Source: an uncultured Planctomycetales bacterium (GTDB lineage: Bacteria > Omnitrophota > Gorgyraeia > Zapsychrales > Fredricksoniimonadaceae). From it: a DNA stretch of 64,000 bases. Below, one piece after another: positions 1,054 to 26,500 of this stretch (position 1 is the first letter of the stretch; every line of letters starts with the position of its first letter). The DNA is taken from assembly GCA_964483535.1 (NCBI GenBank), contig CAZABZ010000001.1, forward strand, positions 8,594 through 72,593, given 5' to 3'. The notes below the pieces were generated by a model that saw only the letters and a list, made by a program, of their open reading frames with translations, searched no databases and was not told where the DNA came from. The position numbers and the translations under genes were made by a program.

Positions 1054-1067
1054 GAAATTCTTTATGC

Positions 1068-4955: not shown

Positions 4956-5162
4956 TGTTTCCCCCTTTTTGGGTTGAAAATCTAAAAAAAATATAAAATA
5001 ACGAGTTTGAAAAATGCTTTCATTATAAGCATCTACTTAAAATATAACACATTTTTAATAAAAAGCAAGCTTAAAACTTGATAAATAAGCAATATTTATA
5101 TAATTAAAGAACAATTACCCTGAGAAATAAAATCCCCTATTTTTGCTACTATTTCTTACAAA
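4956..5162 (-). promoter_or_regulatory. AT-rich intergenic spacer, probable promoter/5' UTR of the 1295-aa secreted-protein gene
   Basis: 207-bp non-coding gap, very A/T-rich with runs of A, lying between the PilZ gene stop and the next gene start on the same strand. No -35/-10 pair could be assigned with confidence. Confidence 0.3.
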
Positions 5163-5519
5163 TTAACCGCCCCACCATTTATCCTTAAATTGCTCGGAAC
5201 AATGATCGGTGATGTATTGATAAATCTTGTCCTTGTCCGGGTCCAAAATTTTGTCAAAAGACATCCCATAAACATACCTCCCTTGGTCTTCCTCAACCCA
5301 GGGCAAGCTGACCTCAAGTTTAATGGGATCGAATTTGTCCTCAAGGGCCAACGACATATCCACGGACCGCTCTCGAGGTAACCGTTTGTCAAAAGACGCG
5401 CGCATCCCTTTTAAGTTCAGGTCCTCGATGATACACTGGCTGGATTCCTGCGTTCCGGGCAGCCAGACCTTTGCTTCCCTTTTGACCTGCCAGCGAGGCA
5501 GTTGTCTGCGTTCATCCAT
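5163..5519 (-). CDS. PilZ-domain protein (putative c-di-GMP receptor), 118 aa
   Basis: ATG at 5517-5519 is preceded by AAAGGAGAGAAAA, a strong RBS. The N-terminal ERRQLPR matches the PilZ RxxxR motif. DLNLKG about 24 residues later matches the (D/N)x(S/N)xxG motif. The start is only 30 bp downstream of the giant-gene stop. Confidence 0.6.
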   Translation of the reverse strand: MDERRQLPRWQVKREAKVWLPGTQESSQCIIEDLNLKGMRASFDKRLPRERSVDMSLALEDKFDPIKLEVSLPWVEEDQGRYVYGMSFDKILDPDKDKIYQYITDHCSEQFKDKWWGG

Positions 5520-5548
5520 GTTTTCTCTCCTTTCTAACGGGGTTGTTT

Positions 5549-8500
5549 TTAGACCTCTATTGTGTACGCATACGTTGTTGATGTATAACTAATATCATAT
5601 GTAAATACAGCCATCAGCGGCGGTATTAAATTGTCAAATCCTGACCAGAAACCGCGGCTGTTGTGGTCCATGCCCATTGAACTTTCCGCCCACAGCATAA
5701 ATTGCCTCTCCCTGACTGTTATGACAATTTTAATAACGGTAATATAAATGATACGTACGGCATGGAAGAACCATTTTACAAATATCCATTCAAAAAATAA
5801 CGGGAAGCCCCAGATCCCATATAAAAAGAGAAACGCGGGGCCCTCGTTAAAAATTGTGCCATTGCGAGGAGCATTTTCCAACGACGAAGCTCCGCTTCTT
5901 GCTTCCGCAAGAAAACAACGGGACCACGCCCCAAAAAACAGGGCTCCCAAAGACGCTGGTCGAAACGCTTCCAAGGGCCGGACTACTCCAATGATTTTTA
6001 GCCGATGCCGAATAGTTCTGGGCGTATTCATTGATGCTGGCGCCGGCAAAATATTCATCCTGCCGGTTACCGGCGCTGACGCCCCACTTGGATTAATAGG
6101 CCGCGTTAATATAAAGCAAAGGTCGGACAACATCAGCGGGAAGAACACGATTGCAATTATGATCAAGGCCATCATTATTCTTTTTCGTATTCTTTCCCAT
6201 TTCTTACTGGAATCTTTGGCAACAGTCGTGTCCGGTTTGAATGTCAGCACAGCCCCGGGGTGTTCCAAATTATATTGACGATGCAAGGCGATGTTCTCGC
6301 GAAGAGAGCGTGCCGATTTAATCGCACGAATTCCTGCCCGACGAGTCAGGGAGGCGGGCGAATCATCCCCTGGTAAATGCCCATGCCAGCGCATAAGCAC
6401 CCCTACAGGAAGTATGTAAAAGAATGGGGCCTCAAACCGCGGCGCTACTTCCAGTTCAATCCATCGGTGAATACTTTCATGGTCTGGTTCCCATTTAAAG
6501 AAACTCACTATTCTCCTCAGCCAGTACAAGAAATAGCCAATACGATAGGTGATCCCCAGAGTCAACGGCATTTTTGTAGGGACGGGGGATAGAACCACCG
6601 CCGCCATCATGGCCTTCTTCACAGCTTTGGCAGCCTCCGGCCAAATAATCTGCACGGAAAAGACCCCTTCGATCCCCTGTAAAGGCCTGGCAATATCCTC
6701 TTTGGTCAATAACTTCATACTCCTGGCCGTAAAATGAAGCTCCCCTTGCTCCGGGTTACTTTTCATTTCTATGCCTTCAAGCAGATTGGCTTCCTCTAAT
6801 TTATCCTGTACTTTTTGGGCAATGTCTATCATATTCGCGCCTTGCACGATAATCGAAATTTCCGCCTGCGACTGCATAAAGTTACGCAATTGATCCGGTT
6901 TAATCAAATCCATGGCCAAAGCCGCGCACAATTCATTAAAACGGAAATTGCCTTCATTTTGAGCCAACCGGCGTTCTTCATTAAATCTGGCTATAAAAAT
7001 AAACGTCTCCTCAGAGAATGGCCCCCATCCCAATTCTTTGATGATCCCCATCAGTAAATCTTTGCCTCGTTCGACCGCGGCGTTATATTCATTGCGATTT
7101 TGCAGATATGCCAGCATCAGACGCGCCCGCAATGACTGTATTTTATCCCGCAAATTCTGCCGAACATTAATATCTCCCCTCACATCAATCGATAGGCCTT
7201 GTGTGACTTGCTCCAAAACCATACCAGCCCGTAAAGGGGCATAGGGGAGTAATCTCCCCTTACGGCCGCGCTTAAATTGTTCCAACTGCCCCAACACATA
7301 CGGATGATTACCCTCCCCTAAAACAAAACCCCGGTATTGGTCATCAAGCTGGATTTTACGATGCATGGCCGCGTCAAAGGGAATGGCCTTATCCGGCAAG
7401 GTGATAACAGCAAGCGACTTCCCACCTTTGGGGCCCGTAAGTAATAAGAAAATATACATGCGTTCATTGGCCCGTTCAAAAAGAAGGCGCAAATTCGTGT
7501 CAATGTCCACCCCCAGTTGCAATTCATCCCCGGGAAGCGCTTGTCCCTTTATGCCATCATTTTTCAATACATCATTTGCCTTAAAAGCCCAATGCGCGCC
7601 GGAAATAACTGGCGCCACTAAAATATGATCGGGTTGAAAACCAAAACGGTATTTCAAATAATCGGCCTTAGCCATGACTTGTATTTCCCATTTGCGACCG
7701 TCATCAATTAAATTAATATGGGAAGCGCTATAGCCATGTCTTGTATCATTTTTAAACTTTGTTTCTTTAACTCGATCACCCCATGCATTACGGACACCTA
7801 CTTCCGCGAACAGAGCATCCTCTTTATTTTGGGTAATAACCATAACTCTAAGCACATCCCCCAATTGATCAAATTTTTCATATTTGTTAGTTTTAGATTT
7901 TATTTTATCGTATATCGAAGCCAGACCTTTAAGATCCACATGAATTTGAATACCTGGGATCCCTTGTAAGATGCTCTTCATTTTTTTACGCATCTCTTTA
8001 GCAATATCTATAAACCGCTCTTCCACTATGCCTACGGCATACTCAATGTCCTTGTGCTCTGCGATGGCTTGATTAACATTCTTTGCAATGTCAAGTATTT
8101 CGGCTATTTTTCTGCCAATATCCTTAAATTCCTCCGGATGTTCCACCCTAAAAATACCGTCGCGCAAATCTTCCACCATCCGGGCGGAATTTAACCTCCC
8201 TGCCAAAGCCATGTATAAATGCCTGACCTTCCTTATAGAAAATTTCTGTTGTTGAGGGTCTCCATAACGGGTCTGCCATAATGTCAAAGCAAAAAGGACA
8301 TACAACACCCTGGCATCGCCACCAGTCATTTGAATGATAGCATTCATGTAATTAAGAAATGTTGAATCCGTCCTAAGTCTTTTGAATGTCTCATTCCAAT
8401 ACGGCCAGGCCATGATGGTTGCGGCGCGGTCTATCACCGACCCCACATTAGGCCCTAAATTAAGACTTTGCCTAATGTCCGCCTGCTTGCTTTTGGGGGA

Positions 8501-11500
8501 CGTCATGATCCTCAACTGGGCCAATGCCGCCTCTACTGTAACCGTATCATTCGTCCACTGGGAAATCTGACGACGGACAAAGGACTGTCCCTTTTCCCGT
8601 TTCTCACTGAAATCCTTGGTTCCTGTCGTAGAGGATTTGAATGTCAGCACAGCCCCGGGGGTTTCTAAATTATACTGACGATGCAAGGCAATGTTCTCGC
8701 GAAGAGAACGCGCCGATTTAATCATGCGAATTCCTGCCCGACGAGTCAGGGCGATGAGTGAATAATCCCCCGGTAGATGCCTATGCCAGCGCATAATCCG
8801 CTCCAAAGGAAGCATATAAAATAACGGCGCCTCGAGCCGCGGCGCTACTTCCACTTCAATCCAACGGTGAATACTTTCATAACCTGGTTCCCATTTAAAG
8901 AAACTCCTTATTCTCCCAACCCAATACAACAAATAGCCAATAAAATAGGTGATCCCAAAAGTCAATGGCATTTTGGGAGAGACGAGCAGTAGTGGGGCCA
9001 CCACCGCCTGTTGGAGGCCAAGCAATCCCACCTTGCTGCGGCCAGGATCTTTACTCTCCAGAGGCTCAGAGAGAAGACAGTCTTTAAAGAGCTTCTTTTG
9101 TTCGTCGGTAAATTTAAAATCTCCGGCAATCGCATCCATAAGCCCGGATAGGTCTCCTCGGACAAGATGAGTACGCTCGGGGAAGGTAGCTTGAACCCAG
9201 CCCAGAAAAGCCTTAGTCCCGGCTTTCGTTTTCATCAACTTCCAGCCCATGAGGTCTTTCAGGGTGTATTTCTCTAAAATATCCTGATAAAATGTCGCGG
9301 CTTTAAAAACGGGATTAGGAATACGTTCACCCGGATGTGTACCATTAATCTTAAGTGGAATAAATACTGTCTGGTAAAGATGTGCCCAGAAGATGTATCG
9401 CTCTTTGTTATCAGACAAACTTCTCGAAAGGAAGATTCTCTTTAACACAGCGACACGATCAACTGCAACAGGTGCGTTAAGTTCGGCATAAATTAGGACC
9501 TTAACATAATCTTTCCATACCCTAAAAAGAAAGAAGGAATCATCAATGATATTTTTGGCCTGATTGAGAAAGGAGCCAGCTCCTTTCCCTGCTTCAAGGG
9601 ACTCGCGGGCTTGCGACAAAATACCAAAAAACGATTTTAAGTCAGGCTCGCCTTTGATATCCTCCATCTTGCGTATGCCAAATATACATCCGAGCGCACT
9701 ATCAACATGCCTGCCTCCCAAGCAAAGTTCAGTATCATTAAGAAGCCCCGCTAACTTGATATTTCTCCTTTTAATCTCTCCCCAAAGTTGTGTCAGTTTC
9801 TTATCTACAAGCTTGCCGGCAATAACAGCTGCGTTTCGACTACGCATGTCGGTGTACCATGCGGCCGTCCGCAATAGTCGACTGGCAGTAAACCAACCCT
9901 GTTTACCGCTCTGAATCGCCTCTGAGGCCTCATTTATAAGTCTCCAGGCAATACGTTTCTCTTTAACCTTTAGTAACTTTGGATCCCCCAGATAATCAAG
10001 AAGTTCCTCCAGAGATGCCTTCAATCCGGATGTATTTTCACCGTTTTGCTCTGAAAGTATCTTCTTAAGCTCTGAACTTACTTCCATGACCTTGCGGCGG
10101 TCCTTAAGCTCACTTTCGATGGCATCGCAAATACTACGAAAACGTTCCCACTTAACTCGATTAGCAAGGCGTCTGTTCCTTATGGTAATCTTGAGAGCGC
10201 TTTGTGGAAATTTCTCAGCAGTCTTTTTAATGGCTTGCGTGTGGGCTTGGGCCCTCGTCAATGGATTCTGGCGGTCCAGAAACAGACGGTTTTCGATAAG
10301 TCCGTGATAAGCATCTTCGCGGACCAAATTTTTACTGAGTTTATAAACAAGTTCGGAGGAATAATAAATTTCCAGCGTGGAATTTTTACCGCGGGTAAGC
10401 TTGTCCCAAATAAATCCTCTTGGCGGAGCGCGCGAAATCTGCTGGTTCAAAATGAACAGCCTCACCGGAACATCGACAATCTCTTCAAATATCTTCTGGT
10501 CAACATTAACTTCGTCAAACGCCTTCTGAATGATAAGTTTCTTGATGTCCTTCACGTTTTGCGTCGAAACATTCCCTGAACATCCCGGCCCGCCCTTTAA
10601 AGTATCCCTTGTATTGATTTTCGACCCAATCCTGATATCCACGAATAACTCATTGGAATCCTCTGAGGCCAGAATAGTGGCCGCTTGAACTAAATATGAG
10701 ATAAGGTCCTTCTCCAATGCCAAAACCGGGACCGCAGCCGGAACCAGATGGAGAAGTTGCCGGTTGAGGTGAAGAATATAATCCCTGGTTATTTCGTCAC
10801 GGCGTACAATAAGCCAGGATTCAAGCATCTCATCATAAGATGGCGGCACGCGGATTTCCATGGAGGCCATTGTGTCAAGAATTTTACTTATATGCTCATC
10901 CAACCCATACGATGCTTTTGCTTTTTTAAACGCTTTTAATATATATTGTTTTTCTTTTTGCGTCACAGGCTTATTGACTTCCGTCCAGGTCATGGTCTGT
11001 TTTTGCCTCAACTTTTCTTCCTGCGCCGGATGGGACGACTTGTCGGATACGGCCCTCGCCTTTGCCGGTTTAAAAATTATGGACCTTTGATATACTTCCT
11101 GAAGTCCAACAACGATTTGCATAAAACCAATCAGCTCCAAAATATACTTAAAGACTGCATGAGAAGCGGGAATATAAAACAGCGTGGAGAACAAAAACAC
11201 TGTCCCAACAAAAAAGCCCAATAACCCGTTATAGAAAAGTGTTATCGCGTTTACGCCATCCATGAGACCCGAATAAAGAATGTCCTTCAATGAAGCATGA
11301 GCTTTACGTCCCTGAAGCTTTGCCAACAAGAACATCATGGCCATATTAAACGCTGTGATCCCGGATATAGATAAAATAATCCGGACGACTTTATTTATCC
11401 GCACGTATTTCGGCAGGCCGGCCTGCGCCGCTGAAAAATGCATCGTCAATCCATAACGCGGAAAGACTTCCAAAATCTTCGACAACGCCGGGTGTTGCTC

Positions 11501-14500
11501 CACCGCCCTGACAAACTCCCTTTCCGGCCCCAACCTTCTGCCATGAAATCTCTTTACGCTGTAATAGGTGTGCCACGCCAGATTGGCCGCAAACATAGCT
11601 TCCAGCGACTGTATCCTATGCTCGGCATCATTGGCAGGAGCGTTACGTTTCTTCAAGTTCAAAGCGTTGAGCGCCACCTCAGACAGGTCCAGGTTAATGT
11701 CATTCTTTTTTATGAATGGATCGGTACACGCATCTTTAAAATCAGCGACATCAGGATAAAGGACATGCGCCTTGGCCTTAACCTTGGCGCCAATCTTCGA
11801 GTTTGACAACGCCTCATTGAGCCATTCCGCAGACAATTTAGTCGCATCCAGCGTGGCATCCACATAATCCGCCGGCGTATAGCTGTCAAAATCCTGGTTA
11901 CGCATGAAAAGGTCGTGGTCACGTGTATCGTCCCCCTGGAAAATACAGCTATATCCGTCCTTTATTTCCAACGTCCCCCGCAATGAAAACGGAATATTAT
12001 TTTTTACTTTATCAAATAACGAAAAGATATCAAAAATCACGGAGTCGCTGGAAACGGGATTAATCATAAAACCGGCACTCTTGTCTTCTTTCCATGCCTT
12101 AGACTTCACATAAGCCTCGATCTTCTTCCCGATACCCGCCGCCCCCCTTGTAAATTCGACAATTTCACTCTTCTTGTCAGGGTTAAACGAAATGTAATTA
12201 AAGCGTTTCTGCAAAATATCCTCTGTCCTTGCTTTGGGGTAAGGACTGTCCCACAACAGCAACATCTGGTAAATAACTTCCCGGGTGTACTTTTTGTGCT
12301 TGCGTAGAAGGTCCAATATCTCCCTCAATGTTTCCGGTATATCATTGGTTTTTTCAAAATAGTCATACCAGCGACAGATCATGGCGACTAACGCCTTATA
12401 TTCTACGGGGTCCCCTCCGCTGGTAATATCAATGCTCCCATCACGAGCACATTGCCATGGCCTTCCCTTGTTTTGCGGGTATTTCTTATTAAAAACATCC
12501 TCTGGCAAATCATGGATCACTTGCTCGTGTTTGATATTGACAACACGGAAAAGTTTCCTGAATTCTGCGACCAGGCCGTCAAAATACGGACTGGTAATAT
12601 TTGCCCCCCTCAGATAGGCCTGCAAAAATTCCCCATCTTTATTGATGTCGTTATAATGTGTTTCCTTGATGATCGCGATCGTCATGATAATATCCAAAAT
12701 CTCCCGGCCTGTAGGTTTGGTCCCCCTATCTTCTAAAAATTTCAAACGTTCCAATTTTTGTGAAATACCTACTTCGGTCCCGACTTGGCGGCAGCCCCTG
12801 TTACGAGTAAGAATATGGAAAAAACGTTGCGCGTACAGCCGCGCCAGGCAAGGATCCAGAAACTCGAGGAGTTCCTGCGGAACAAGGCTGCGATCAAACG
12901 CCTTTTCTACAATAAAATAAGTGTCTTCAATCAACGCGCCGGCGGCCGCCAATTTTTTATGCGCGATCGACCTTGGATTATCTAATAAATATCGAAGCGC
13001 CAGACGATAAAAAATGACCGCCCTCATCGATGAGAAATATTGTTCGGCATTACCTTCTAAATAACGCTTCAAATTGATCTCCAGCACATTCGCGAAACGG
13101 TACCCGTAATGAACGGCCCAGTTATCATCATAAACAAATGTCGCTTTAAACGAAAACAGACTGTCTGATCGGTTCTGTGGCAACGCCGGGACCACCTGGT
13201 ACCTCAAACAAATATTCACATTCCGTCCAACCCATAAAATCCGGATCATCGTGTTATAAAATTCTTCTTTCAGGGCTTGATCTTCCACGGATTTTTCGTG
13301 CCATTTCTCCCACAGGGCATCAATGACTTGCTCCATCCCTTTCCCCTGTATCCACTGTATCCACCCTATTGGAAGATCCTCCTCTTTTCGCGGCGGAAAT
13401 AAACATACACTGACCGCTTTAGAGAACTCTTCCTTTGATTTAAAAAGATAACCAAAGCTATCTTCCTGGGGCGTAAAATATCTTTCAAAACAACGCTTGA
13501 CGCGGTCTTCTAATTTCTTCCTCTCGCTTTTATTTATTTGCCCGACCAAATACCAGGCCGGGATCTTTTCAGGCTCTTTTTTCGGCGATATAACGCAAGC
13601 TTTGTCTGCGGCGGCTTTATCTTTCACTGCCGAAGATTTTCCATTTGCCAACGAGCCAAACTTCTTTTGCCAGCTGCGGACAAAAATGGCAGCTATCAAG
13701 CTGACGCCAACTAAAACCATGGTCCACTTGAGCATCCCCCCAAGCCACATAGACGCGATGCTCACCGCATTGATCGCCAACAATGCCGGCATTGCACACA
13801 AACCTTTCGCATCATTCGTGAAGTCCACTAACTGACGAAAGATGTTGACACTGTTCGGCGCGTCTTTCCCTTCAATGGGACAAGAGCGGTCATGAAGAAC
13901 GTCCATCTGAATGCGGGCCCCTGCCTCGATCGTCTCATCCTCTTTTTGCATCTCGCTTAACTGTGCCAGCCTGTCAGACCCTTCAAACTCGGCTAACAAA
14001 CCAGCCAAAGGCGCATTCTTATTTTCAATGAAACCTCTGACGTGTCTGTCCAAAAGACGCGACATGGCTGAAGGATATCTTCCCTGCCAGTACGCGCGTG
14101 TAAAAAGACCTTTGAGTTGCGATGGGTTAAACGCCTGGCCATTATGAATAAATACCGTGCGTATCCCCCGATCAAAGCCATAAAGTTCCACCCCAAAATC
14201 ACCATGCACAAACTTTTCGGTCTCTATCGAAGCACGCTTCTGTAAAGCCTTAAACATTCTGCTAACCCAGAACACGATAACCTCATGAAGCATCTCCCGT
14301 GTTTCCTTCTGTTGTGGGCAAATGCTTTCTAACGCTTCCGGTAAAGAACGGCTGCTGAAATCGTCCACCCATTTCTCAAACTGTTCTTCAAGGCTCCCCC
14401 CGAAAATCTTTTCCGAAAAGCGTTCTTTCAAGAACCAATCCTCTCCACGCAAGTCAATAAAAGCATGTATGAAATCCTTCGTCCGCTCATCATATGCCGC

Positions 14501-17500
14501 ATAACTCGGCACCAAAGATAAACCATAAAAAATCATCTGGATATCTGATTCGACTGGATCTTTGAACCCACGCGTACGGTCCTCAAAACGTACAGCCGTC
14601 CTGTCCGCGTCATCATGAAGACGGTAACGAAGATCGGAGAAATCCAAGAATGCTTCCGCATTGGTGTATTTGCCCTCAAAAATGTAAATAACATCTTTTT
14701 CAAAAACAATCGGAATATCTTGTCTTTCCGTCTGTCCACGGATATAAGCATTTTTGATCACATACTCCTGACGTTTGGAACCGGAGGCGCGAAATGCGTG
14801 TAAGTTCCTTAAAAGATCTAGGGCCAAAGTAAAATCAAAAAAGCCCTCTTCTCCCAGATACTCCTGACCTGGCTTAAGATTGCCGACCATGTCACCTAAA
14901 AGCGCTCTTTCCTGTGGGGTCAAAACCAACGGTCCGTTGGCCGGGTCATGGGCTACAACTTTCTGCACAGCTTCCCGCCACTGGCGGTCTCTAAGGAACC
15001 AGTCCAGCTCAATGATCTTCACACGTGCGGTATCCGCTAGAAACTTCTCAATGAGTTTGGCAATGATCGTCTTCCCTGAACCTGAACCGCCGTCAATGGT
15101 GACAATAGGAGCATTACCTTCAACCCCGCGGGCAAGACGTTCACGGATATGTCTTACGATCGAAATGACAAACGGTGTCATACATGACTGAAGATAGTCA
15201 AGGGAAGTAGCAAATATCGGGTTGCCTGTCTTGGGATCTATCGGAGGATGATTATAATAACCGTGAGCTAAAGCAAACTCATGAGCAGGCAAAGGAATAA
15301 CCGCCGGGTCCTGTCCGTAACGATAACGTGTCGAAGAAATCGACAAATCGATCTGTGGATGTTTCAACAACAGTACCGGCAAATCCATTTGCCCGCCATA
15401 AAGGGCCTTGCCCTGTTGATTATACAACTCCATTCTTTCCTGCGTTATGCCCAGGCCAAACTTGCCGCGTTGTATCCAGCCAATACTAATACGATGCCGC
15501 GGATCTATCCTGTCTTCGTTTTTCTTTAAAATACTGTAAAACAGCTCGTAATAGTGAACGACCCGCTTTTCGTTCTCGATCCCAAGCAAATACACGAAAT
15601 GGACCCGTCGGCCACGGTTATAATCCATCAATTGCAGCATCTCTTCAAATCCTTCTCGCTCATTATCCGGCTCACTGCCAAAATCAGTATAACGTACCAG
15701 AGGCCCCATCCCGTCGATGGACAATTTGGTCATCATATGTCGATGTTCGGTGGAAACCTTCTCTGAGCGATAAACCTTCTTGTAACTGATACGACCCTGC
15801 ACCCTGATGGCCACAAAATCAAGTCCGAGTAAAGCAATAGCAAATAACGACGGTATCAAATGCCCATGGTTGGGAGGATTGCCGGCAATTGGCATAAGCC
15901 CTATCTTGATTTCCTGATCAGGATCGGCATCCTCCAGCGCCACCGGCCCATCATCCTCGATAGAATATCTTAATAATTTCGCGCGCTTAAACGGATTTGT
16001 GACCTTGCGACGAACATTTTCTTCAATCATCCCGAACACAGTCTCATAAGCTCTGAGGATCCTACTATTGAGGAACTTGTTGCTGCGATCACGGATCTGC
16101 GGGTCCGCTTTAATTTGCTGGTCAACAACATTGGCCAGCACTCCTTGCACGGCCTTAATCGCTGTAACATGGCGGGTTGCGGGATCCTGACCACGTTTGC
16201 CTTCAAGCCACCGGCGCAAAATAACTTCACGGGCAGAATTCTGCTCTTCAGTGAGATTAAATTCTTTACCGTGTGTGGCTAAGGCGCGAATTTCATGTCC
16301 AAGACTTAACGCTGTTTCAAGGCGGGTGCTATAAGCGGGATAATAGGTGCTGGCCCAAAGGTATTCCAGGCCATCTTCGATAGTAGACGTGGCCAAGAAC
16401 CCTTTAAAAGGCGCGCCTTTTAACAGGCCTGCCCTTCCCATCCAACGCAGTTTGGCCGCAGCCTGGCTGTCGCCAGTTTCTTCAAGGCCGCGGGCCATCA
16501 GTTCCCACATCTCCTCGGGGATGTCCGTCACCTTGCTCCGATCTAACTGTGTGAACTCATCCGCCACGATCTTCTCATAAGGAATGTCCCTCATTTCTAA
16601 AGGCATAATGGCCTCGGGCAGACGGCGGGTGGGGTCTTTTTTGCTTGAGGATGGCAAATTGTCTTTGGTCTGACATTGTGTCAGAAAATCATGAAGGAAA
16701 TGTTTCTTAAAACTCGCAACATACGCCAACTTTCTCTCTGCATCTGTAAGTTTATTCGCTTTGGCATATCTCTTGGATTCTTTCACAACCAATTGATAAA
16801 GCTCTTGCAATCCTTGAATGGTATATTCCGATTTTATCCTTCCATCAGCATTTAAATATTTAGCTAAGAATTTCTTCCTTTCAGTAGGGATATGATAACC
16901 ATAGCTTGCAGTTGTCATAATTCCGTCTTCTTCCAACACATCACCGTCAGAAACAAACAATGCGTTCTTGTCCCCATCAATAACAACTTTTGATCCTTCC
17001 TTAAGTTTCAGGCCGTCTTTCAAAACAATTCCCTGCCCCGCTCCTGTTAATTGCCACTTAGCAACAGCAAGATTAATTAAAGAAGGAATGCCATCCAGAC
17101 GAGTCAAGTCAGCTTCATGAGAAGAACTATTGCCATAAGTCGTAATCAGGCCTGCTTTGGGATAATCAAACATCACCTCTAAGACCTGCTCTTGATTGCC
17201 TTCGTGCGCAAGAAAAATAACCGGCTTGTTTTCACTCATCAGCTTACGGGCTTTATTAATATTCCAAACAAGATATCCTTGCATAGCCCCGGAGGTTGAA
17301 GCTTCGCCTTGAGCAAGCCTCTTGGCCTTAACGCCTTTTTTAACTTTATATATTCTTCTCACTCCTAATTTATCTTGTAGTTTTTCAATCCGTGGAATGG
17401 CGCGGGCCTCTGAAATCTTACCTTGAGCTAATTGCTCTTTGATATAGGCGATTTCCGCTTGTGGAGCAAAATTTATGTTTCGAGTTTGCAAGAAATAAAT

Positions 17501-20500
17501 CTTCCCGCCATTCACAACAAACTCAACTTCCTGTGGGCCGACTGCTTCCTCTAACTTTTTGCGTACCGCAAGAAGTTGGCGATAAATACGCGGTGCTGTC
17601 TGCGCCAATTTATTAATATCCTGCCCCTTCCGTCCGCCAGTCATCAATTCCTCACCTTTGGCATTTTCAAGATACTGTCCAAATAAAACTTTTTCATTCG
17701 TATTGGGATTACGGGTTGAAAAAACTCCCACGGCATAAAAAGGCCGTGAAGGACCTTTCCCGCTTATCCACAACTGAATAATAATTGGCAGGTCATACGC
17801 CTCCCCCAAACCTTCTCTGCGACGGTAATCTTTAGCCTTCTCTGAATACCATGCTTGCGCAACTTCACGAATAGCGACTAAAAGATCATTTGTGTTGATT
17901 ATGGTTTTAAGAACGCCGGGCATTGATCTCTTGGGATTACTGCGAACCGAATAAGAAACTGATAAATCATCGGACACTCCCGCTTTATGTAATTCTTTAA
18001 AAATCAAAGCCATAAAATCTTCTGCCTTTATTTGGGAAGACTCTATGATAATTTTCACCAAATCTTCAGAAAGAACTATGCCCGATGGATATGGAAGCCC
18101 CAGCTGATCAAGGATTAAAAATCCCGCTTCCTTATTACCCATCTGAGGCCTATAACATCCTTTGCCTAACAGCCTTACACCAAGTTTCACTCTATTGGCA
18201 GCCAATTGTTCTGCTGAAAATATATGCGATTTTTTAGGAAATGAAATGGCCCGCACTAATCTATCTCTCGCTGCTAAATAAAGAGCAATGAAATCCTTAT
18301 ACTCGGCAGGGACCGAAAGACGCAAGCTGTAATCACCATACCCCCAGTGCTTTAATGCGCTCCTCTCGGGATGGGATTCTGATTTCTCCTCCATATAGGC
18401 CTGCGAAAGGTGAAAATATTGCTTTAAAACATCCAGCATGGGGTCTTGATCAATCCGTCTTTTAATGTTAAGCAACACGCGAGACTCTTCAAAGGTATCG
18501 AATTTATATATCGTATATTTTAAAAGGAAAGTTACAAACTTTGAATTCTTCTGAGAAGGGCCTAAGTAACGAGGCTCAGCATTGTCGCCTCTAAGAATCC
18601 TATCGACTCTATTTTCGAATCTCTGATATAAATCGTACAATTTTTCTGAATCAAGTCTTGGATTAATTTTTTGTGCCGCACGAAAAACAGAAGATAGCCG
18701 CTTCTCCGCCATTACTTTTTCTGGAGTCAATAATTGAGTATTGGCTGTGCCCTCAGCCGAGGTTGAATCCTTGATTATGTCCTGATAACGCTTGACCTGC
18801 GCAATAAAATCTTCAATAGTTCTTGCATTAAACCCGACAGCGGCAACTATTCCTTCCGGCATAGCCAGCACACCAGCCACCTTCGTTTCAAAAATCCCAG
18901 CCGCGCCGATAATGATAAGTGACTGATTCTCCCTGCGAATATCCATAAGTGAACTATTCTCTTCTGCCAACTTTGCCTGGACATCAGACCACTTCTTAAG
19001 AACCACTCCATCAACACCGAGTTTGACCGCTGCGTTGATGGTTTCAATGAACGACGGCTGGACGTCCGTTCCAATCTCAGCAAAGATAATTAGGGCCGGA
19101 TACTCAACACGAATCTTAACTATCTCATCGGCCGTTGGGACAAAGTCGATCATAGTGATAAAGCTAGCTCCTGCCATGGCCCCTTCGTAGATCTGGGCAA
19201 CGTTGGTCGCAAAATAACCGATAACAGCTGATGAGTTCTTCGTGCGAACGGCCTTTAGTACATCGATTATATCAACCGTTGGAATAAAATTATTGGCAAT
19301 CAAAATCTCTGCAAACTGTACTAATGTAGCTGCCTCCAGCCCCGCATAGCCCTTGCCGCCGGTGACGGTGTGCAGGCCGACTTCAATACGGGAAGCCATG
19401 ATAACAGCCTTGATATCATCTTTGGCTATAGCCCCCTCCTCTGGGACAACCTCATTCCCAACGGCCATCTGCATCAGCTTTCTCATCTGCACCCCAACAT
19501 CCCCAGAATCTCTGTGATCGAAATTCTTAATAGTTGCAACAGCCGCTGCATTATCAGACAACACCGGCGCAGAGATCGTGCGAGCATCGTTGACGATCCT
19601 CATAAATTCCTGATCCCCGTTGTCCTTCATGGCGAGGAAAAGAGGAGGAATATAAATAATGCTCGCGAGATTTCGTCCTTCGGGATTCCAATCGCCGGAG
19701 ACATTGCCTTCCCTTAACCCTGCGATAATTGGTTCACACCCTTTAACATGCTGTTGCGCATCCGCGCTGCTGCCTAAAAGAAGGACATCTTTCAGCCCGC
19801 GCTTTAACGCAATAGCGGCTAATTCCTTCAGCGCAACTTCCCCAGCTAAAGTAATAAATACAACTTTGCCATCTACGTCCTTGCCTATTATAGAGAAGGA
19901 CGCCTTTTTGGTTTGGATTTCCCAAGCTACGGCATTAGGTTCAAGGGCCGGGAATTTATACTCGATGGTGTCTGATACATCTTCACCCTTATTGTTAATG
20001 ACCACAACCCCGCCAACAGCAAAACGGATCTTTGAAATATCGCTGTCCCTGACTGGTTTGCTGTCCTCAATATCTACTTTTATAATGCCTGCGGTTGGGC
20101 CATCAATAACAAAGAAATAATAGGTATTAGTCAGAGAAACTACTTTATCAAGCCCGATACCGGGAGCTGTCTTAATAATCAATTTGCCGTTTTGAATAAA
20201 CATGGTCTGAGCTTCCCAGAAATTACCCTGATGACCATTGATAGCAAAAATGGCACCGGTTTTCTTGGCGAAGGCCTTTACAGACAAACCCGGGAACCGT
20301 CTAAATATTTTATTGCGCTCTTTGGCGATTTTAATCGTCTGGGCAAATCGGGCGAAGTCGTATCTTATGCCTTTCTTGCTGGTATATAATTTAACTACAT
20401 TCCCAGAAGGAATAACAACTTCACGGGCCCAAATAGCGCCTTCTTTAGACTGGGTGGTAAAGGTTGTAACATTTAATCCTTCTACGGCTTTAGTGCCAAT

Positions 20501-23500
20501 GATCCCGGCATAAGCAAAAATGGCCTTGATAAATTCATAACTATCCCCACTCAACCCTTCAATGACCTGCTGGGACCTAAGGCCAAGCCCTTTGACGTTT
20601 ACCTCAACAAGATTCTTGGCTAACTCTACGCGCTCTGCGGTCTTTAAACTATTCAAAAGCGTCAACGCATCTTCCCATGCCTGTTGAGGCACAACATTGA
20701 TGCCTTCAATACCACTCTTGCCTTCAAGGATCATATCTTGCTTGCGCAAGTTGGCGGCTATGCGGAACATTTCGCCAATATATGTTTTAATGTAATCTTT
20801 CTGCTCTTTGGACTGGAGTTGTTCATCTGTAATTGTGGTAGTTACGCTGACTCCCTTGACTTCCCCTGAAGCAATCAAATCTGCAAAGGCCTTATTGAAC
20901 ATGCCCTTGGTGCGCAATTGCGCCTGGGGCTTGGTCATATATACAATGGTCAGTGTACGGCCTTTCTGTATTAAGCCCTTTTCGAGCATTTCTTTCCTGC
21001 TCTTGTTGAAATTATCAAGGGTGAATTTCGATTCCTCTTCAAGTACAAAAGCCTCGTTGCTGAGCATCTTGTTAAGTACATCTTCTGAGATTATGCCTTC
21101 CTGTGCTTTGCTCTGGGCTATCTTACGTATGATCTGACGGATCAAATCCGCCTCAGAAGTGCCCACAGCCTCTTGAAGCGAAGCGCCTGCTTCAAGGGCG
21201 GCTTTAACTTCCTTAACATGTTCATCCTTGCTTATTTTTCTCCCGCCGCCTATTTCAACCTCAAATGCATTTTCTACTGCCGCTTCAAGAAGAGCTATTG
21301 TCAAGCGACCAACTCCACCGGAGATAATGATACGTAAAGGATTGTCTTTATTGCTTTTGGAACGAACAACGTCTGCCTTGGCAAAAAAATCCAAAATCTT
21401 ATCAAACACCTGTACAACATCAGCGCCAAGGACCATCAACTGACTGTTTTCATTAGCTAATAACTCAATGCTCTGCTCATCGGCGATATCATTAACAGCC
21501 ATCAACGAAACCATTCTTCTTAATGGCTCAATAGGATTAATTGCTCCCTTGTCCTTAGTCCCGTCTTTAGTCACATCAATCCCTACTTTAGCTAACTCGT
21601 TTTGAAGATATTTATCATCATCCGACAATTTTCCTGTTTTTATATCTTCTGCCACGCCTTCCATTATCTCCTCTATCCGAACTTTAGCTTTCGCTTTAAC
21701 ACGCTCAATTTCTTCCTGACCGACCACTTCAATTATTCCCGCCAATTCATCCATTAAATCCAGAAAAACAGATCCAAACTCTTCCACATAATGTTGCGCG
21801 CGTTTTGTCTCCTCATCTTGTCTCTCTGCATCAAATCGCTTCTTAGATTTAATCTTTAAAGCATACCCGACAGCTCTGCTGACCTGACCAACCTCATCTA
21901 CAATTTTTTGAATCCTTTCTACCCCCGGATTTTGATATCTAAATTCATACGCCATAAAGTTAGGATTGGCTTCCCCTAAAATGCCACCTTCCCTCAATTT
22001 CCCAACAATCTTTGCCCCTTCGTTAACAACTAACGGCCGAAATGGCCACTGATTAAACGGCATTAGTTTGTTTCTTTGAAAATATTGAATATTTTCTTTC
22101 ATTTCCGCCAAAGTTAAATATGGATCAAACATGATAAATCCAACATCCAACCCCAGGCCAAGGTCTTGAAGCGTTCTTAACGAAACAGCTATGTCATCAA
22201 ACTGCATCCCTCGTGAATACCTCTTAAATTGGCTAAGGCTTCCAGCCTCAACACCCATAAAAACTTTTACTAACCCTACCTGCTTTAAACGTATGAACAA
22301 TTTCTTCATTTCCTCATTTTGATTCCCCCTATCGTTACTTTTAAAAACAATATCCGGCCTAGTAAAAATACGGAACGTAAATTTAATCCCATATTTCTTC
22401 GACAATGCCTCAATGCCGTCAGCAATTTGATAAATCCTTGAAATATTCTCTTTGTTTCGGCCTCCAATAAACTCATCATCCGAGAACTCCACCTCAGTTA
22501 TTCCCTGAGACATAACCGATTCTAAGTTCTTCAGCACCCGCTCAACAGTAAACCCTTGCCAACTCGCCGTGTTTCCTTTTTGTACTACTTCTCCTGTCCT
22601 TCTAAAGGACGTTCTTGTGCAATAGGCACAACCTCCCCAAGGACATCCCCGGGAAGTTTGGACTTGAACATTGCCGCCATCCTTGACAATATCCTGATAC
22701 GAACCTACCGCAGGCATATAAGGTAACGTCTGAAGATCTATTGTTTCTCTTTTTGTGTCTACCCTTCTGTTAGTCGCCGGATCTAAGAAAACAAGATTTG
22801 AGACCTCTGAAAGAGAGGCCTTCCCTCTATTAAATTCCACTAATCCTCGTAAAGCAATTTCGCCCTCACCCCTCACAACAACACCTTGAGGATAAATTTC
22901 TAAGAACTTGTCTGGGAAATATGTGGGAAGTTGATTGCCAAAGACCACTAAGGTGTGTTTTGGATCAAAGCCTTGCCTGGCCATCAATTGAGACATAATA
23001 GCCTGCACTAATTCTATTGCCCCTGGTTGTACCGATAACCCTAACATATCCGGCTGATCATTAACGATTTCATCGACTATTCCTCGAATATCATCATAGC
23101 TTCTTGTCCATCGGCTTGATACATCCACCGTCCTTCCAAAATGGCCCTGAAGATCTCCTTTTAATGTTTCCAAAGATAAATTATTCCACGCGTTATAATG
23201 TGCCGGTGACCCAAGCCCAATTAATTTGACTTTGCTTACAATTTGGAAGGTAACAAATTTATTAAAGGCAGGGTGAACGCTGGTAACAACTCCGCTTGCG
23301 ATATTTTCGTTAAGCCAGTTCTTGAATGCTTGCAACATGTAACCGTTTTGGGCAATGATGCCCGCGGTAAGGGCGGCTACGTCATCGTTATCCATATTGG
23401 GATTAGCTAAAGATTGGAATTCATCGATCAATACAGCTTCAACCACAGCAGGTGGCGCGCGGCCTAAATGAGGACTTAAGGTAACTACATTGTTGATTGT

Positions 23501-26500
23501 GTCTGTTTCCGCAACGAAACCATTGGCTGTCTCTGCCACATTCAAGGTAAATTGCGCATCGCTTAAGCCAGCCTTGGCCGCGGCAGCTTCGATCGTGCTG
23601 CGAAGCTGGTCAACTTTTTCTGAAGTCATCTGACCTTCTATGGCTTCCACTGTTGCCTTACCGGCAACGATGGCGACCTCCATAGCCACCTTCGCTTCAT
23701 GCGTGGTGGTGACCTTGATGGGGAAGGGTTTCTTGCTCTCATTGGCTATTGTAAAACTGTGCCTGCTAAGCTTGGAAGCTATAATCACCCCAAGCATCAG
23801 CACCGCTGGTACAAACCAGATCGCGCCAAGAGAATAAAAGACAATTATTCCAACAGTGCTCAAGCCAAGAAGGGCCTGTCCAAAGCTCCACGCATAGGCG
23901 AGGACATAGGCCGCAATCCCAACCAGCGTCACTGTCGTAAACCAACTGGAACGAAAGAGCTTCGGCAGTAAATTTGCATCACCGTACTCTTCATCAACGA
24001 TATTGGTAGTATGAATAAACTTATAAACACCGTTGTACATATAACGCGCCTGATTGGCTGAGAGAGATAACGGTTTACTCTGGGCAATGCCCGCCAGTCG
24101 AGCAATCACAGATATATCCATTTTGTCTGCCGCACGCATTTCCCCAATCTTGTTGTAACGATTGAATTCCCCAAACATCTCATTCGCATGGACCATCAGG
24201 CCTTCCTCATAACCCCAACGGGCAAGGAACCGATCCAGCGCCTCACGGAACCAACGGTCAGATGTCACGCGCTTGTTTTCTGGGAGCCCTTCATTTACAT
24301 AATCAACAAAACGATCCAGGCTGGAACGTTCAATGGTTAGATCTGGCCTAACGATCGGATCAAATGAACGAAATTCATTGGCCGTGGAAGCATTTAAGCG
24401 AGCCACTGCCGTACGGATGACCTTTGTTGCACGTGCGATGAGGACTCCCTGAACAAGCCTAACCCCTCCCTTGAACACCACCGGAACCGCGAGTACGACC
24501 AGTGACGCAATCGGAGCAACCCAAAGAAGAGCGATTGCTATCAGCACCGATGCGGCAACACCCGTCCGCGCCCAATTAACACCAAGGGCCTTCTTTTGTG
24601 CCTCTGCATCATTTAAAGCTTTCTCCCAAGTCTTCTTAATGTCCTCATTAGCTTGACCCAAAATGCGCATCCTGAGCGCCTTGATATCATCACGCACGTT
24701 CACGCGTTCAGCTCCCATCAAAATATCGCGCCAAGCGCGGTATTGAGCGTAGAAGAAGAAAATTCCTGTATCAATGATTGCCATCGCAATCTTAATCGGC
24801 ATAGACCATATCGTTCCACGATATTGAATACGATGGTAAATTGCGCTGTAATCAGGGATCTTCTTGTCATAAATGTTATATGCCCATGGCCAAACTTTCA
24901 AAGCGCGACCAAGCCACGGACGAGACAGGTTCGGGATAACGCCTGGATTATAAACTTGAGGATAAATAAGCCAGCCCAAGATCATATTGAAGTAGAAGAT
25001 TGTCACCGCAAGGATCACTGGGTGAAAATTCACAAGGCACCCGATGATGATAACAAACGGAGCGGCCAAAATCATCCCATAGCGATCACCCTTGCCCTTA
25101 ACAACATCAATATATCGCTGGTTCATATACCAACCGCTGCGGTCTGTCGGAGGGAAGCACGGAACGCCCTGTGTTGCCCAGTCATTAATAGCATCCACAT
25201 AGTTCGGATAAAGCGAACCAAAAATCCCCACGAACCCAGGCTTAATGAACATGCGTTTAAGCAAGATCAGGGTCCCCATCGGCCAACCATAAATCTGATT
25301 GTAGAAATGGTGGGCTGACAAACTGATCGAATGCATAAAAAGATAGCTCATCGCAATGGCAATAATTGAAAGCGGCAAGCCATACCAAGGATTGATCTGG
25401 AGAACCATCAAAATAACAAATGTCAAAGTACCGATCATCCCAGGGACCTTGCGCAAGAAGAAATGGCGCATGCCAAGTGAGGTCAATTTGTAATGTACCG
25501 GGATTGGGCTAAGAAGCGATCGCAGCATCTCTTCATGCTGGAAGAGCTCGGTCACGTCAGCGGCATATTTGTATTCTGGTGTCATGTGATTGATACGACG
25601 GTGTGTCTTGTCCTGAATCATTTCCACATATGAACGATATCTAAGCTTCCCACCTTTTGATATAGCGCCCATACCCATCAGTGAATCTTCAGCCGCGGAT
25701 AAAAGCGGCCCATTCCCATCGCGGCCAGAACGCAGATCAACACCCGCAGCCTTAAACGGTGCGCGAACCTGAGCTGTCAAGCCCGAAACACTTGGGAATG
25801 GCTCGCCGAAGAACGAATCAAGTTCCATCTCCCACTTGCCATAAACTTCCAGCGAACCCATACGGTTCATCGCCATCTGAACAGGATGTGTCCAGGCAGA
25901 TTCCGCGAGGCCACCAGATCCGGAAGCCAACGTTGTTAACATATGCTCAGACCACAGCGGGAACAGACTACCAGTGAGTTTCGGATCCGCATCATACTCT
26001 GCAGTCACAAACGGTAAGAATTGCGCTTCTTCAAACGGGATACGGTTAGAGTTATCCTGACCAATCATATGCCTGGCCTGAGTCATTGCGCCTTTCAACT
26101 CCATCCAAGCCGCGTCCTTAACTGGCATGATCAACATATATCCGGATGGCTCAACAACGGAAACATTCGGTAGATATTTTGAATCTTCGGCCATGCCCGC
26201 TTGAGCAGGGCTAAAGCCGGCGGCCCAGGCACCAACCGGCTGATAATTGTATGCGAACTTTTCCGCAGCAAGTTCTTTATAATTCATTTCAGCTTGGATA
26301 AGATAACTATTTTCATCCTCCGTCAAGGCCTGACCATTGGACTGCTTTGTTTTGATTCCTTGATAAATATCATCCCAAAGATAATCTTCAGTATGATGAC
26401 GATAAGCTTGGAATATCTCGGCGTTACGTAAATTAATGTTCTTGATCGTATTTTCACGTACGCTGACCCAAAGCGTAAATGTTTGCATAAGCCCTTCCAA

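Follow-up and report, generated by a model that had tools for sequence, protein, structure and literature searches.

An eroded long-RSH-like module within a giant membrane protein of an Omnitrophota bacterium

The DNA analyzed here, a stretch of 64,000 nucleotides referred to below as the window, encodes a module related to the long RelA/SpoT homologs (RSH) near the C-terminus of a giant open reading frame. The reading favored here, with a probability of about 0.55, is that this is a complete, heavily eroded long-RSH module kept in frame in a giant membrane protein, with a regulatory role and weakened catalysis, and not a delivered toxin. The module would be translated as part of a multi-pass-membrane, multi-enzyme Omnitrophota protein and would act mainly in regulation or scaffolding, in the manner of RelA with its pseudo-HD and Acinetobacter SpoT with its pseudo-SYNTH. 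As a pyrophosphokinase it is predicted to be at best weak or re-specified, and a ligand or partner would be sensed by its TGS-like and ACT-like parts, which would lie on the cytoplasmic side of the giant protein. In the stringent response of bacteria, long RelA/SpoT proteins form a conserved hub linked to the ribosome. The features discussed are collected in Table 1.

Table 1. Coordinates of the giant ORF, the long-RSH-like module and its surroundings in the window.
Feature	Positions	Strand	Residues of giant ORF	Basis or remark
Giant ORF	5549..63991	-	19,480 aa within window	Membrane-anchored mosaic with weak enzyme-like domains; ORF list, Pfam, hydropathy
Direct repeat copy 1	8594..8974	-	18340-18466	Immediately upstream of the RSH module
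Whole long-RSH-like module	6593..8614	-	18460-19133	Family profile, AF2 model, Foldseek
Pseudo-hydrolase (HD) remnant	8138..8614	-	18460-18618	Aligned to Rel HD from helix GEPYIxH onward
Helical linker HD-SYN (three-helix)	7970..8137	-	18619-18674	Helices in model
Synthetase (SYN) domain	7559..7969	-	18675-18811	Pfam PF04607; holds most of interval 7580-8053
SYN-TGS linker	7463..7558	-	18812-18843	Model helix 371-382; family motif Q.F..DE....DF..N
TGS-like beta-grasp domain with loop insertion	7205..7462	-	18844-18929	Family profile, model
Helical (AH) domain	6863..7174	-	18940-19043	Aligned to Rel/RelA AH
ACT/RRM-like domain	6641..6862	-	19044-19117	Model topology, weak family matches
Direct repeat copy 2	6194..6574	-	19140-19266	Immediately downstream of the RSH module
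C-terminal tail, hydrophobic and aromatic-rich	5552..6193	-	19267-19480	TM-like segments; ends ...TSTTYAYTIEV
PilZ-domain protein, downstream gene	5163..5519	-		118 aa; Pfam PilZ E=3e-9

Translated on the minus strand, positions 7580-8053 read KDIEYAV...HGYSASHINLIDDGRKWEIQVMAKADYLKYRFGFQPDHILVAPVISGAHWAFK (residues 18647-18804 of the giant ORF), and the RSH synthetase motifs that a sequence-only reading had quoted from this stretch are present. The RelA_SpoT profile search proposed there gave a borderline Pfam match above the cut-off (PF04607, 29 bits against 27, E=1.4e-6) when a 301-aa piece was scanned. The score dropped to 25.8-26.4 bits within pieces of 1,000-1,317 aa, and the match was not listed for a 4,480-aa chunk in the scan with pieces of about 5,000 aa; shorter pieces were needed. 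A family profile built from nine distant relatives, leaving out this sequence and its two close relatives, matched the giant ORF with 285.9 bits (E=3.5e-89) in an unbroken alignment of 646 residues (18472-19117). Judged by these scores, the RelA/SpoT-type resemblance is well beyond chance, and the assignment of an RSH-superfamily synthetase-like domain to the C-terminal region of the giant ORF holds. For NCBIfam TIGR00691 (spoT_relA) the cut-off is 499.2 bits, and the module, at 24.8 bits, stayed far below it; on its sequence it is a long-RSH homolog and, by the NCBI rule, not a member of TIGR00691.

The same reading had placed the domain among the stand-alone synthetases of the small alarmone synthetase (SAS), toxSAS or Tas1 type, with neither a hydrolase domain nor a TGS/ACT region. 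This part was not borne out. RSH homology begins about 185 residues upstream of 7580-8053, in an HD remnant, and ends about 310 residues downstream, past TGS-like, helical and ACT-like parts seen with the family profile, AF2 and Foldseek. Searched against the PDB, the family profile matched B. subtilis Rel (6yxa, E=8.5e-48) in a single alignment that spans Rel residues 47-555. Other matches were Rel 8fr8 (2e-44) and RelA (3e-40), so that full-length Rel/RelA lie at about 1e-40 to 1e-48, compared with only 8e-5 for the small synthetase YjbM. An AF2 model calculated from a 12-sequence alignment reached a pLDDT of 81.5 and a pTM of 0.81; a run on a 2-sequence alignment was poor (pLDDT 45) and its model was not used. 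With the 12-sequence model, Foldseek ranked full-length Rel, RelA and SpoT best (4e-14 to 1e-12), compared with 8e-4 for SAS1 and 6e-3 for CapRel. The top TM-score to the model, 0.36-0.38, was that of A. baumannii SpoT (7qpr).

The order of the module is thus read as pseudo-hydrolase, helical linker, SYN, TGS-like, helical and ACT-like, without a zinc-finger domain. The last helices of the HD remnant before the linker, LYMALAGRLNSARMVEDLRDGIFRVEHPEEF, were aligned to E. coli RelA 171-215. To judge from its position only, the SYN-TGS linker may correspond to the 'Core' helix-turn-helix of SpoT. Positions 381-573 of the family profile matched 6htq_x, the TGS and helical chain of ribosome-bound B. 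subtilis Rel, with E=1e-10, and were aligned to Rel 400-470 in 6yxa. In the AF2 model the TGS-like segment begins with a pair of strands, followed by a helix and two further strands, both short. Pfam TGS was not detected on the module sequence alone, and the isolated TGS-like segment gave no Pfam match.

Within the helical domain, NELCAALAMDLIKPDQLRNFMQSQ was aligned to RelA 538-566 (DELLAAIGGGDIRLNQMVNFLQSQ). The ACT-like segment was modeled as strand-helix-strand-strand-helix-strand, with a pLDDT of about 65-94 per 10-residue block. It matches Rel 721-790 weakly through the family profile and aligns with family segments that weakly match Pfam ACT_4 (E=0.0026 for the P0028 fragment). Pfam gave no match on the isolated segment of this sequence, and the name ACT-like reflects the model topology and the weak family matches. 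A zinc-finger (ZFD/RIS) domain is absent between these two parts: the helical domain runs directly into the first ACT-like strand, and the alignment leaves about 106 residues of Rel (615-720) unmatched. Binding of stalled ribosomes and deacylated tRNA by the module seems unlikely, given that this domain is missing and that the module is tethered to a membrane.

The module has HD, three-helix linker, SYN, TGS and helical domains in the order of the long RSH proteins Rel, RelA and SpoT (6yxa, E. coli RelA 5iqr, M. smegmatis Rel 8fr8), probably followed, as in them, by an ACT/RRM domain. Its identity to the solved structures is about 15-19%. It differs from them in lacking the HD metal ligands, the R241/R269 clamp and the ZFD/RIS domain, and in the insertion added to TGS. 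Moreover, long RSHs are free factors of about 740 aa that associate with the ribosome, whereas the module forms part of a membrane protein of 19,480 aa. Small alarmone synthetases, toxSAS and Tas1 (RelQ/YjbM 5dec, CapRel 7ztb) share with it the SYN fold and the catalytic acids; they consist of a single domain whose ATP clamp is intact, and the toxins among them have a partner gene for an antitoxin, an immunity protein or a small alarmone hydrolase (SAH), none of which applies to the module.

The hydrolase site has been erased. The H53 region is deleted, H77-D78 align to R-I (AALaqLRI), and D144 is a leucine, the local context being FALTL compared with FADKL/LADRL. All four Mn2+ ligands are lost in the alignment, from which the hydrolase half is certainly dead; the same reasoning applies to the pseudo-HD of RelA. 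RelA[hS], with its pseudo-HD, and Moraxellaceae SpoT[Hs], with its pseudo-SYNTH, are cases in which a catalytic domain has been kept as a non-catalytic regulatory fold. The module combines an HD that is certainly dead with a SYN that appears compromised as well, a pairing that was not found described in the literature surveyed.

The synthetase site is mixed. Both Mg2+ acids are kept (D18712, RelSeq D264; E18769, E323), as are K243 (K18688), S247 (S18692), K251 (K18696) and H342 (H18800), the ligands of the ATP phosphates and ribose, and also Q325 (Q18771) and W343 (W18801). The G-loop residues Y308 (Y18754) and H312 (H18758), on which the acceptor stacks, are also in place; the catalytic acids and the G-loop were the positions singled out for checking in the sequence-only reading. 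Both adenine-clamp arginines are lost, R241 being D18686 and R269 being M18717, and K304, N306 and R327 are replaced by T18750, H18752 and M18773. In characterized synthetases R241 and R269 hold the ATP adenine between them, and the guanine stacks on Y308 (PMC7983052); the RelP equivalents of these ligands have been described (PMC5794853). Among 53 relatives, K243, K251 and D264 are essentially invariant and E323 is Glu in 49; none of the four is missing from this sequence. At the R241 position 45 of the 53 have Arg, whereas this sequence and its two closest relatives carry D, D and G. The R269 position is Met in 13 of the 53, several of them otherwise intact-looking, so that the loss of R269 alone may not be disabling. 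Conceivably, R18715, two residues before M18717, substitutes for it.

These residues bear on a rather doubtful alternative, which sees the module as an alarmone synthetase that is active, monofunctional and RelA-like, with a dead HD and a live SYN. Tethered to the giant protein, it would supply (p)ppGpp, or some related nucleotide, locally in response to a signal sensed by its TGS-like or ACT-like parts. All of the kept positions listed above fit this alternative. So does an RxKE motif, RVKE, at the place of RxKD in bifunctional Rel. The wider family in Omnitrophota giant proteins mostly keeps R241, K243, D264, Y/F308 and E323 and has HK in place of HD, a RelA-like pattern, and the SYN domain is itself under purifying selection (dN/dS 0.45 against the closest relative). 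Against it stand the charge reversal from R241 to Asp together with the other four losses, and the G-loop, which drifts across the two closest relatives, the closest carrying Y308F and H312Q. SYN is also the least conserved domain, with 52% aa identity to the closest relative and 28% in the G-loop region. A precedent is A. baumannii SpoT, a proven pseudo-SYNTH that has lost exactly these two clamp arginines and the G-loop Tyr (PMC9974481); unlike it, the module keeps the G-loop Tyr and the Mg2+ acids. The lost clamp arginines, and SYN being the fastest-evolving part of the module, speak for the favored reading of a weakened, mainly regulatory module.

In the three members of the subclade (49-67% overall identity), the Mg2+ acids, phosphate lysines, ribose His and Q325 are all conserved, as are the strands GDVLRVMVI, RKWEIQVM and AHWAFK. 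The kept acids, lysines, His and Q325 resemble an active site under selection, an observation that runs against weakened catalysis.

Only one homolog was returned by a word-indexed search of 5.8 billion proteins; the family was found by index-free HMMER search. A search of genome contigs with the module gave no match. Among 37 relatives, Pfam detected RelA_SpoT in 34, HD_4 in 24, and TGS and ACT_4 in seven each. The relatives lie mostly inside Omnitrophota giant multi-enzyme proteins, often of 1,000-8,000+ aa. At least several dozen related modules exist, many in large Omnitrophota proteins annotated after other domains; NCBI names include 'glycogen/starch synthase, partial', 'phosphoglycerate kinase, partial' and 'HD domain-containing protein' [Candidatus Omnitrophota bacterium]. 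Relatives P0003-P0038 represent the family to which the module belongs; its common traits are HK for HD, VM/IM for IRT behind the catalytic Glu, PHWIYK, an insertion in TGS and the lack of a ZFD. Most of them keep R241, D144 and H77, which this sequence, P0001 and P0002 have lost. A further difference is the position of the present module, near the C-terminus and bracketed by a 381-nt direct repeat.

The module is still under selection, with an overall dN/dS of 0.35 against the closest relative and normal codon usage. The pseudo-HD is its most conserved part (79% aa identity, dN/dS 0.21), with the helical domain close to it (78%, 0.28). These values also weigh on the idea of a decaying, functionless relic, in which a once-separate RSH gene was joined to the giant frame through a missing stop codon and is being lost. 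The closest relative lends this idea some substance, for there the module forms an ORF of its own, shorter and in a different frame, and a TAG stands in frame exactly where the window has CAG (Q18475, 8567-8569). The eroded catalytic motifs point the same way, as does the lack of the module at the corresponding position in other related MAGs of Omnitrophota. A relic is nevertheless improbable given the dN/dS values, the 2 kb without stops or frameshifts, the normal codon usage and the compact, confident model. The ACT-like part is absent from the close relative P0001. The giant gene of the relative ends in 667 additional aa that by eye resembled an HD domain (SGEPYYVH..., ILGHDFVEEG); having no Pfam support, they were dropped as a candidate.

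The giant ORF begins with a Met inside an N-terminal repeat unit, and the 9 nt upstream of it hold no stop. The protein is probably cut N-terminally and extends past the window edge; residue numbers are therefore relative to the window. Scanned in 1,000-aa chunks, it gave Pfam matches to TPR, ResIII, B12-binding with Radical_SAM, DUF218, NAGPA, PPDK_N with PEP-utilizers, AAA_16 and RelA_SpoT. Hydropathy shows many TM clusters between residues 7076 and 19426. The RSH module, present in a single copy, is flanked by such clusters in the enzyme-rich C-terminal part and is presumed to lie on the cytoplasmic face.

The sequence-only reading had proposed that a toxSAS-like module on a giant envelope protein would fit an offensive or host-manipulating role. 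A toxSAS/Tas1-like effector of this kind would deplete ATP or pyrophosphorylate tRNA in a target cell. The shared superfamily and the kept catalytic acids are compatible with such an effector, and predatory lifestyles have been linked to Omnitrophota giant proteins (bioRxiv 10.1101/2023.11.21.568195). Against it stand the long-RSH architecture with HD remnant, TGS, AH and ACT, and SAS and CapRel similarity that is weaker by orders of magnitude. In addition, no secretion or cleavage motif was identified around the module, which lies between TM segments, and PADLOC defense models gave no match. The loss of the adenine-clamp arginines, as seen in the alignment, argues against a high-turnover, ATP-depleting toxin. 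A cognate immunity or hydrolase gene was looked for as well. None adjoins the giant ORF: no antitoxin, immunity, SAH or PAAR/VgrG context was found among the downstream neighbors, the region upstream of the ORF lying outside the window. The next gene encodes the PilZ-domain protein, which is conserved in relatives. Taken with the rest, an offensive effector is very improbable, and the toxin on a giant protein, tempting as it is, was dropped as unsupported.

On the side of the module, the neighbors in the window are PilZ, a 1,295-aa ORF without a Pfam match and MutL; those of the closest relative are PilZ, PIN/FitA, MutL and MutS. The PilZ protein is 78% identical to the product of the gene that follows the RSH ORF of the closest relative, and synteny is conserved. 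The PilZ gene adjoins MutL in L003-L005. Rfam and tRNA scans across the window were empty.

The PVC group, including Omnitrophota, has been reported to be without long RSHs (PMC3153485). If the favored reading is true, it qualifies that claim, adds another RSH catalytic domain recycled as a regulatory fold and offers a testable handle on the regulation of enzyme mosaics in Omnitrophota giant proteins. RelA/SpoT, ppGpp and PF04607 are not mentioned in two published Omnitrophota giant-gene papers, and no paper in the literature surveyed names both Omnitrophota and ppGpp. A broader proposal, which we regard as doubtful and more speculative, is that Omnitrophota carry a lineage of modules derived from long RSHs that occur mainly in membrane-anchored giant multi-enzyme proteins, where they would be built-in switches sensing a nucleotide or ligand for the neighboring enzyme modules. 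The subclade of the present sequence would then be a 'double pseudo-enzyme', in which both catalytic halves were given up and the module was kept purely for regulation or scaffolding.

The direct repeat that brackets the module consists of a hydrophobic segment and a W/R/H-rich domain of about 100 aa, on which Pfam gave no match. Its two copies are 75% identical at the amino acid level and 83% identical over a 300-nt core, and are spaced exactly 2,400 nt apart. A non-coding element was considered for the 381-nt repeat and rejected: dN/dS is 0.38, differences at the three codon positions number 23/12/27, the second position being the least changed, and stop codons abound in the other frames.

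The codon-usage score of the C-terminal tail, the last 214 residues, is unusually low, and Pfam gave no match on it. Non-coding read-through was considered here too and rejected. In the Omnitrophota MAG L005, the ORF that lies upstream of PilZ has a C-terminus matching residues 19333-19478 (29% identity, E=3e-9). By this comparison the tail is probably a genuine protein end, the related MAG having a homologous C-terminus with the same TTTYxYT ending.

Window positions 7580–8053 contain stop codons when read on the plus strand. The minus-strand reading is an open frame (KDIEYAVGIVEERF...HGYSASHINLIDDGRKWEIQVMAKADYLKYRFGFQPDHILVAPVISGAHWAFK) and corresponds to residues 18647–18804 of a single giant ORF of 19,480 aa. 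The first Met of this ORF lies inside an N-terminal repeat unit and the 9 nt upstream are free of stops; the gene therefore probably runs on beyond the window edge. The repeats, each of ~230 aa (MNAGGVISQ...GRVGWDNFDVTG...; LSMNAGDVISAQTGIGGKIDWNFNVKG...), have no Pfam match.

The claim of the sequence-only reading that this interval encodes a RelA/SpoT homologue (RSH)-type synthetase sequence was borne out. Pfam RelA_SpoT (PF04607) matched a 301-aa piece with 29 bits (E = 1.4e-6; cut-off 27), a fragile match that scored 25.8–26.4 bits in pieces of 1,000–1,317 aa and was unlisted for a 4,480-aa chunk. Searching 1.84 billion representatives with index-free HMMER gave 58 relatives at E ≤ 1e-3. 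An independent family profile, made from nine distant relatives with the window sequence and its two close relatives left out, had one match in the giant ORF, unbroken over residues 18472–19117 (285.9 bits, E = 3.5e-89). At the sequence level the RSH resemblance is real, and the family-level evidence is decisive. Among 37 relatives scanned with Pfam, RelA_SpoT was found in 34, HD_4 in 24, TGS and ACT_4 in 7 each, and RelA_AH_RIS in 3.

Features of the window and of related loci
Feature	Window position	Strand	Residues of giant ORF	Other loci	Remarks
Giant ORF	5549–63991	minus	1–19,480		
N-terminal repeats	~61000–63991	minus	1 to ~1000		
Lysozyme-like motif	37760–38602	minus	~8524		IRKHEGFRAWPYVDPNHKQMDIGYGF
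B12-binding + radical SAM	~21992–24991	minus			Pfam, E = 1e-7 and 6e-6
PPDK_N + PEP-utilizers	~15992–18991	minus			Pfam, E = 5e-15 and 2.5e-3
Direct repeat (381 nt, in frame), copy 1	8594–8974	minus	18340–18466		brackets RSH module
RSH module	6593–8614	minus	18460–19133		
Direct repeat, copy 2	6194–6574	minus	19140–19266		brackets RSH module
Hydrophobic C-terminal tail	5552–6193	minus	last 214		
PilZ-domain small gene	5163–5519	minus		L001 11716–12069; L003–L005	Pfam, E = 3e-9
1,295-aa ORF	1068–4955	minus			hydrophobic signal-peptide-like N-terminus
MutL fragment	25–1053	plus			
Extra 667-aa region				L001 7920–9917	

The module proved to be a whole long RSH rather than a lone synthetase domain. 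In a single-sequence phmmer search, the match to E. coli RelA begins at RelA residue 171, the end of the hydrolase domain plus inter-domain helices. The profile of a 12-sequence family alignment (A3) matched full-length B. subtilis Rel (6yxa, residues 47–555; E = 8.5e-48), mycobacterial Rel (8fr8; 2e-44) and E. coli RelA (3e-40), each in one alignment running from the hydrolase (HD) through the synthetase (SYN) and TGS to the helical domain; its TGS-plus-helical positions matched Rel chain 6htq_x (1e-10). An AlphaFold2 model computed from A3 was confident (pLDDT 81.5, pTM 0.81) and showed, in order, a helical HD-like element, the SYN alpha/beta core, a beta-grasp-like TGS region, a helical domain and an ACT-like unit of strand-helix-strand-strand-helix-strand topology. 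In a Foldseek search of the PDB, full-length Rel, RelA and SpoT came out on top (4e-14 to 1e-12; best TM-score 0.38, SpoT 7qpr).

The sequence-only reading had also held that hydrolase, TGS and ACT regions were missing. Pfam run on the module sequence alone indeed detected neither TGS nor ACT; nevertheless, an HD remnant and a TGS-like region align to Rel. The TGS-like domain is supported by these profile alignments, and the predicted ACT-like domain mainly by model topology, together with weak ACT_4 matches in aligned relatives. Canonical long RSHs have a zinc-finger/RIS domain, whereas the module lacks one, and ~106 Rel residues are without counterpart in the alignment. Long-RSH homology and architecture are established.

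A stand-alone toxic synthetase of the toxSAS/Tas1 type, as first proposed, is thus very improbable. The synthetase sequence on which that proposal was built is real, but the interpretation fails on architecture, relatedness and gene neighbourhood. The A3 profile reached only 8e-5 against the small synthetase YjbM/RelQ, covering SYN alone, compared with 8.5e-48 for Rel, and Foldseek gave ~1e-3 for SAS1 and 6e-3 for CapRel. PADLOC returned no match for the module, and the only NCBIfam model found was the long-RSH model TIGR00691 (24.8 bits against a cut-off of 499).

Catalytic residues were numbered as in RelSeq/B. subtilis Rel by transfer through the profile alignments. The hydrolase site has lost the H53 region by deletion, and R-I stands in the alignment where Rel has the HD dipeptide, as does Leu for D144; the hydrolase is therefore dead. 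In SYN, K243 (K18688), S247 (S18692), K251 (K18696), Q325 (Q18771), the G-loop residues G307–Y308 (G18753–Y18754), H312 (H18758) and H342–W343 (H18800–W18801) are retained, as are the catalytic acidic residues D264 (D18712) and E323 (E18769). Substitutions are R241 to D18686, R269 to M18717, K304 to T, N306 to H and R327 to M. The ATP adenine is sandwiched between R241 and R269, and Y308 stacks on guanine (PMC7983052); the RelP equivalents of the two arginines, the Lys/Ser phosphate ligands, the ribose His and the Asp/Glu Mg2+ ligands have been described (PMC5794853). As judged from these alignments, the metal and phosphate site is intact and the adenine clamp is gone. Across 53 aligned relatives K243, K251 and D264 show essentially no variation, and Glu occupies E323 in 49. 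At R241, 45 of them have Arg, but the window sequence and its two closest relatives carry Asp, Asp and Gly; at R269, Arg occurs in 27 and Met in 13. P0001, the closest relative, additionally carries Y308F and H312Q. A. baumannii SpoT, which has a proven pseudo-SYNTH, lacks the same two arginines and also the G-loop Tyr (PMC9974481), which the module keeps.

Selection was measured against P0001 (67% identity, locus L001). The overall dN/dS of 0.35 indicates that the module is no neutral pseudogene, and the whole of it is under purifying selection. SYN is the least conserved domain (52% aa identity, dN/dS 0.45), with a G-loop region only 28% identical; the pseudo-HD is 79% identical (0.21) and the helical domain 78% (0.28). 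Constraint on SYN is relaxed, the reverse of the usual pattern for a catalytically constrained synthetase. The main competing explanation, an active RelA-like synthetase, would account for the phosphate, Mg2+ and ribose ligands, all retained in 3/3 subclade members, and appears unlikely though not negligible. The module is a long RSH, degenerate and built into a giant protein of Omnitrophota. By analogy with the pseudo-HD of RelA and the pseudo-SYNTH of SpoTAb, its role is probably for the most part regulatory or scaffolding, on what would be the cytoplasmic face of the giant protein; if it is active as a pyrophosphokinase at all, that activity would be weak or re-specified.

In L001, the giant gene (29,339 aa) stops 80 nt short of a separate 555-aa RSH ORF in another frame, which is followed by PilZ, PIN/FitA, MutL and MutS. 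Homology with the window starts exactly at the first HD-helix remnant. The L001 ORF starts with TTG, and the upstream homology crosses, within L001 9918–10001, an in-frame TAG that is CAG in the window (Gln18475, 8567–8569), so that a single nucleotide sets separate versus fused product at this site. P0001 ends with ...FMQSQR, without the ACT-like part and all downstream sequence. The L001 giant gene has an extra C-terminal region without counterpart in the window; SGEPYYVH and ILGHDFVEEG look HD-like by eye, but Pfam gives no HD match.

The direct-repeat copies are 84% (nt) and 75% (aa) identical and spaced exactly 2,400 nt apart. They are coding in the giant-ORF frame (dN/dS 0.38) and encode a hydrophobic segment plus a ~100-aa W/R/H-rich domain with no Pfam match. 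The repeat, which L001 lacks, suggests that a cassette was inserted and the flanking segment duplicated in the process. The tail behind the second copy has a codon-usage score below nearly all of the remaining giant gene. Its final 146 residues are homologous to the C-terminal end of an ORF that lies upstream of PilZ in L005, another Omnitrophota MAG (29% identity, E = 3e-9); both have aromatic-rich hydrophobic segments and then a TTTYxYT-type motif at the end. No RSH module was found in the 870 available residues of the L005 ORF. The shared tail may serve the giant-gene family as a conserved anchor or sorting signal at the C-terminus. Most simply read, the RSH module would be a variable cassette that members of this family can carry at the 3' end, here inserted in frame with flank duplication.

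The MutL fragment shares 75–79% identity with MutL from MAGs titled Candidatus Omnitrophota, and 80% with the MutL encoded on L001. Several RSH-family members appear at NCBI as Candidatus Omnitrophota proteins labelled by other domains (starch synthase, phosphoglycerate kinase, HD domain), of up to 7,967 aa and mostly partial. Like the tabulated enzyme-like matches, those of the giant ORF to Pfam TPR, ResIII (helicase), DUF218, NAGPA and AAA_16 are weak though recognisable, with many TM clusters separating the modules. This arrangement agrees with the 'multi-enzyme' class described among giant proteins of Omnitrophota (bioRxiv 10.64898/2026.06.07.730766). RelA/SpoT is mentioned neither there nor in West-Roberts et al., who assign Omnitrophota to the PVC supergroup; long RSHs were reported missing from the PVC superphylum (Atkinson et al. 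2011). The lysozyme-like motif is sub-threshold for Pfam Phage_lysozyme (E = 0.014, 16 bits, cut-off 22), but noteworthy in view of the reported link between giant genes of Omnitrophota and cell-wall degradation.

The 1,295-aa ORF has no Pfam match; homologues in two related MAGs (L006, L007) are 46–49% identical over parts, and L001 has a PIN/FitA toxin-antitoxin pair in its place. The PilZ gene directly follows the giant gene and adjoins MutL in several related Omnitrophota MAGs; its conservation is a hint that c-di-GMP may be connected with the giant-gene locus.
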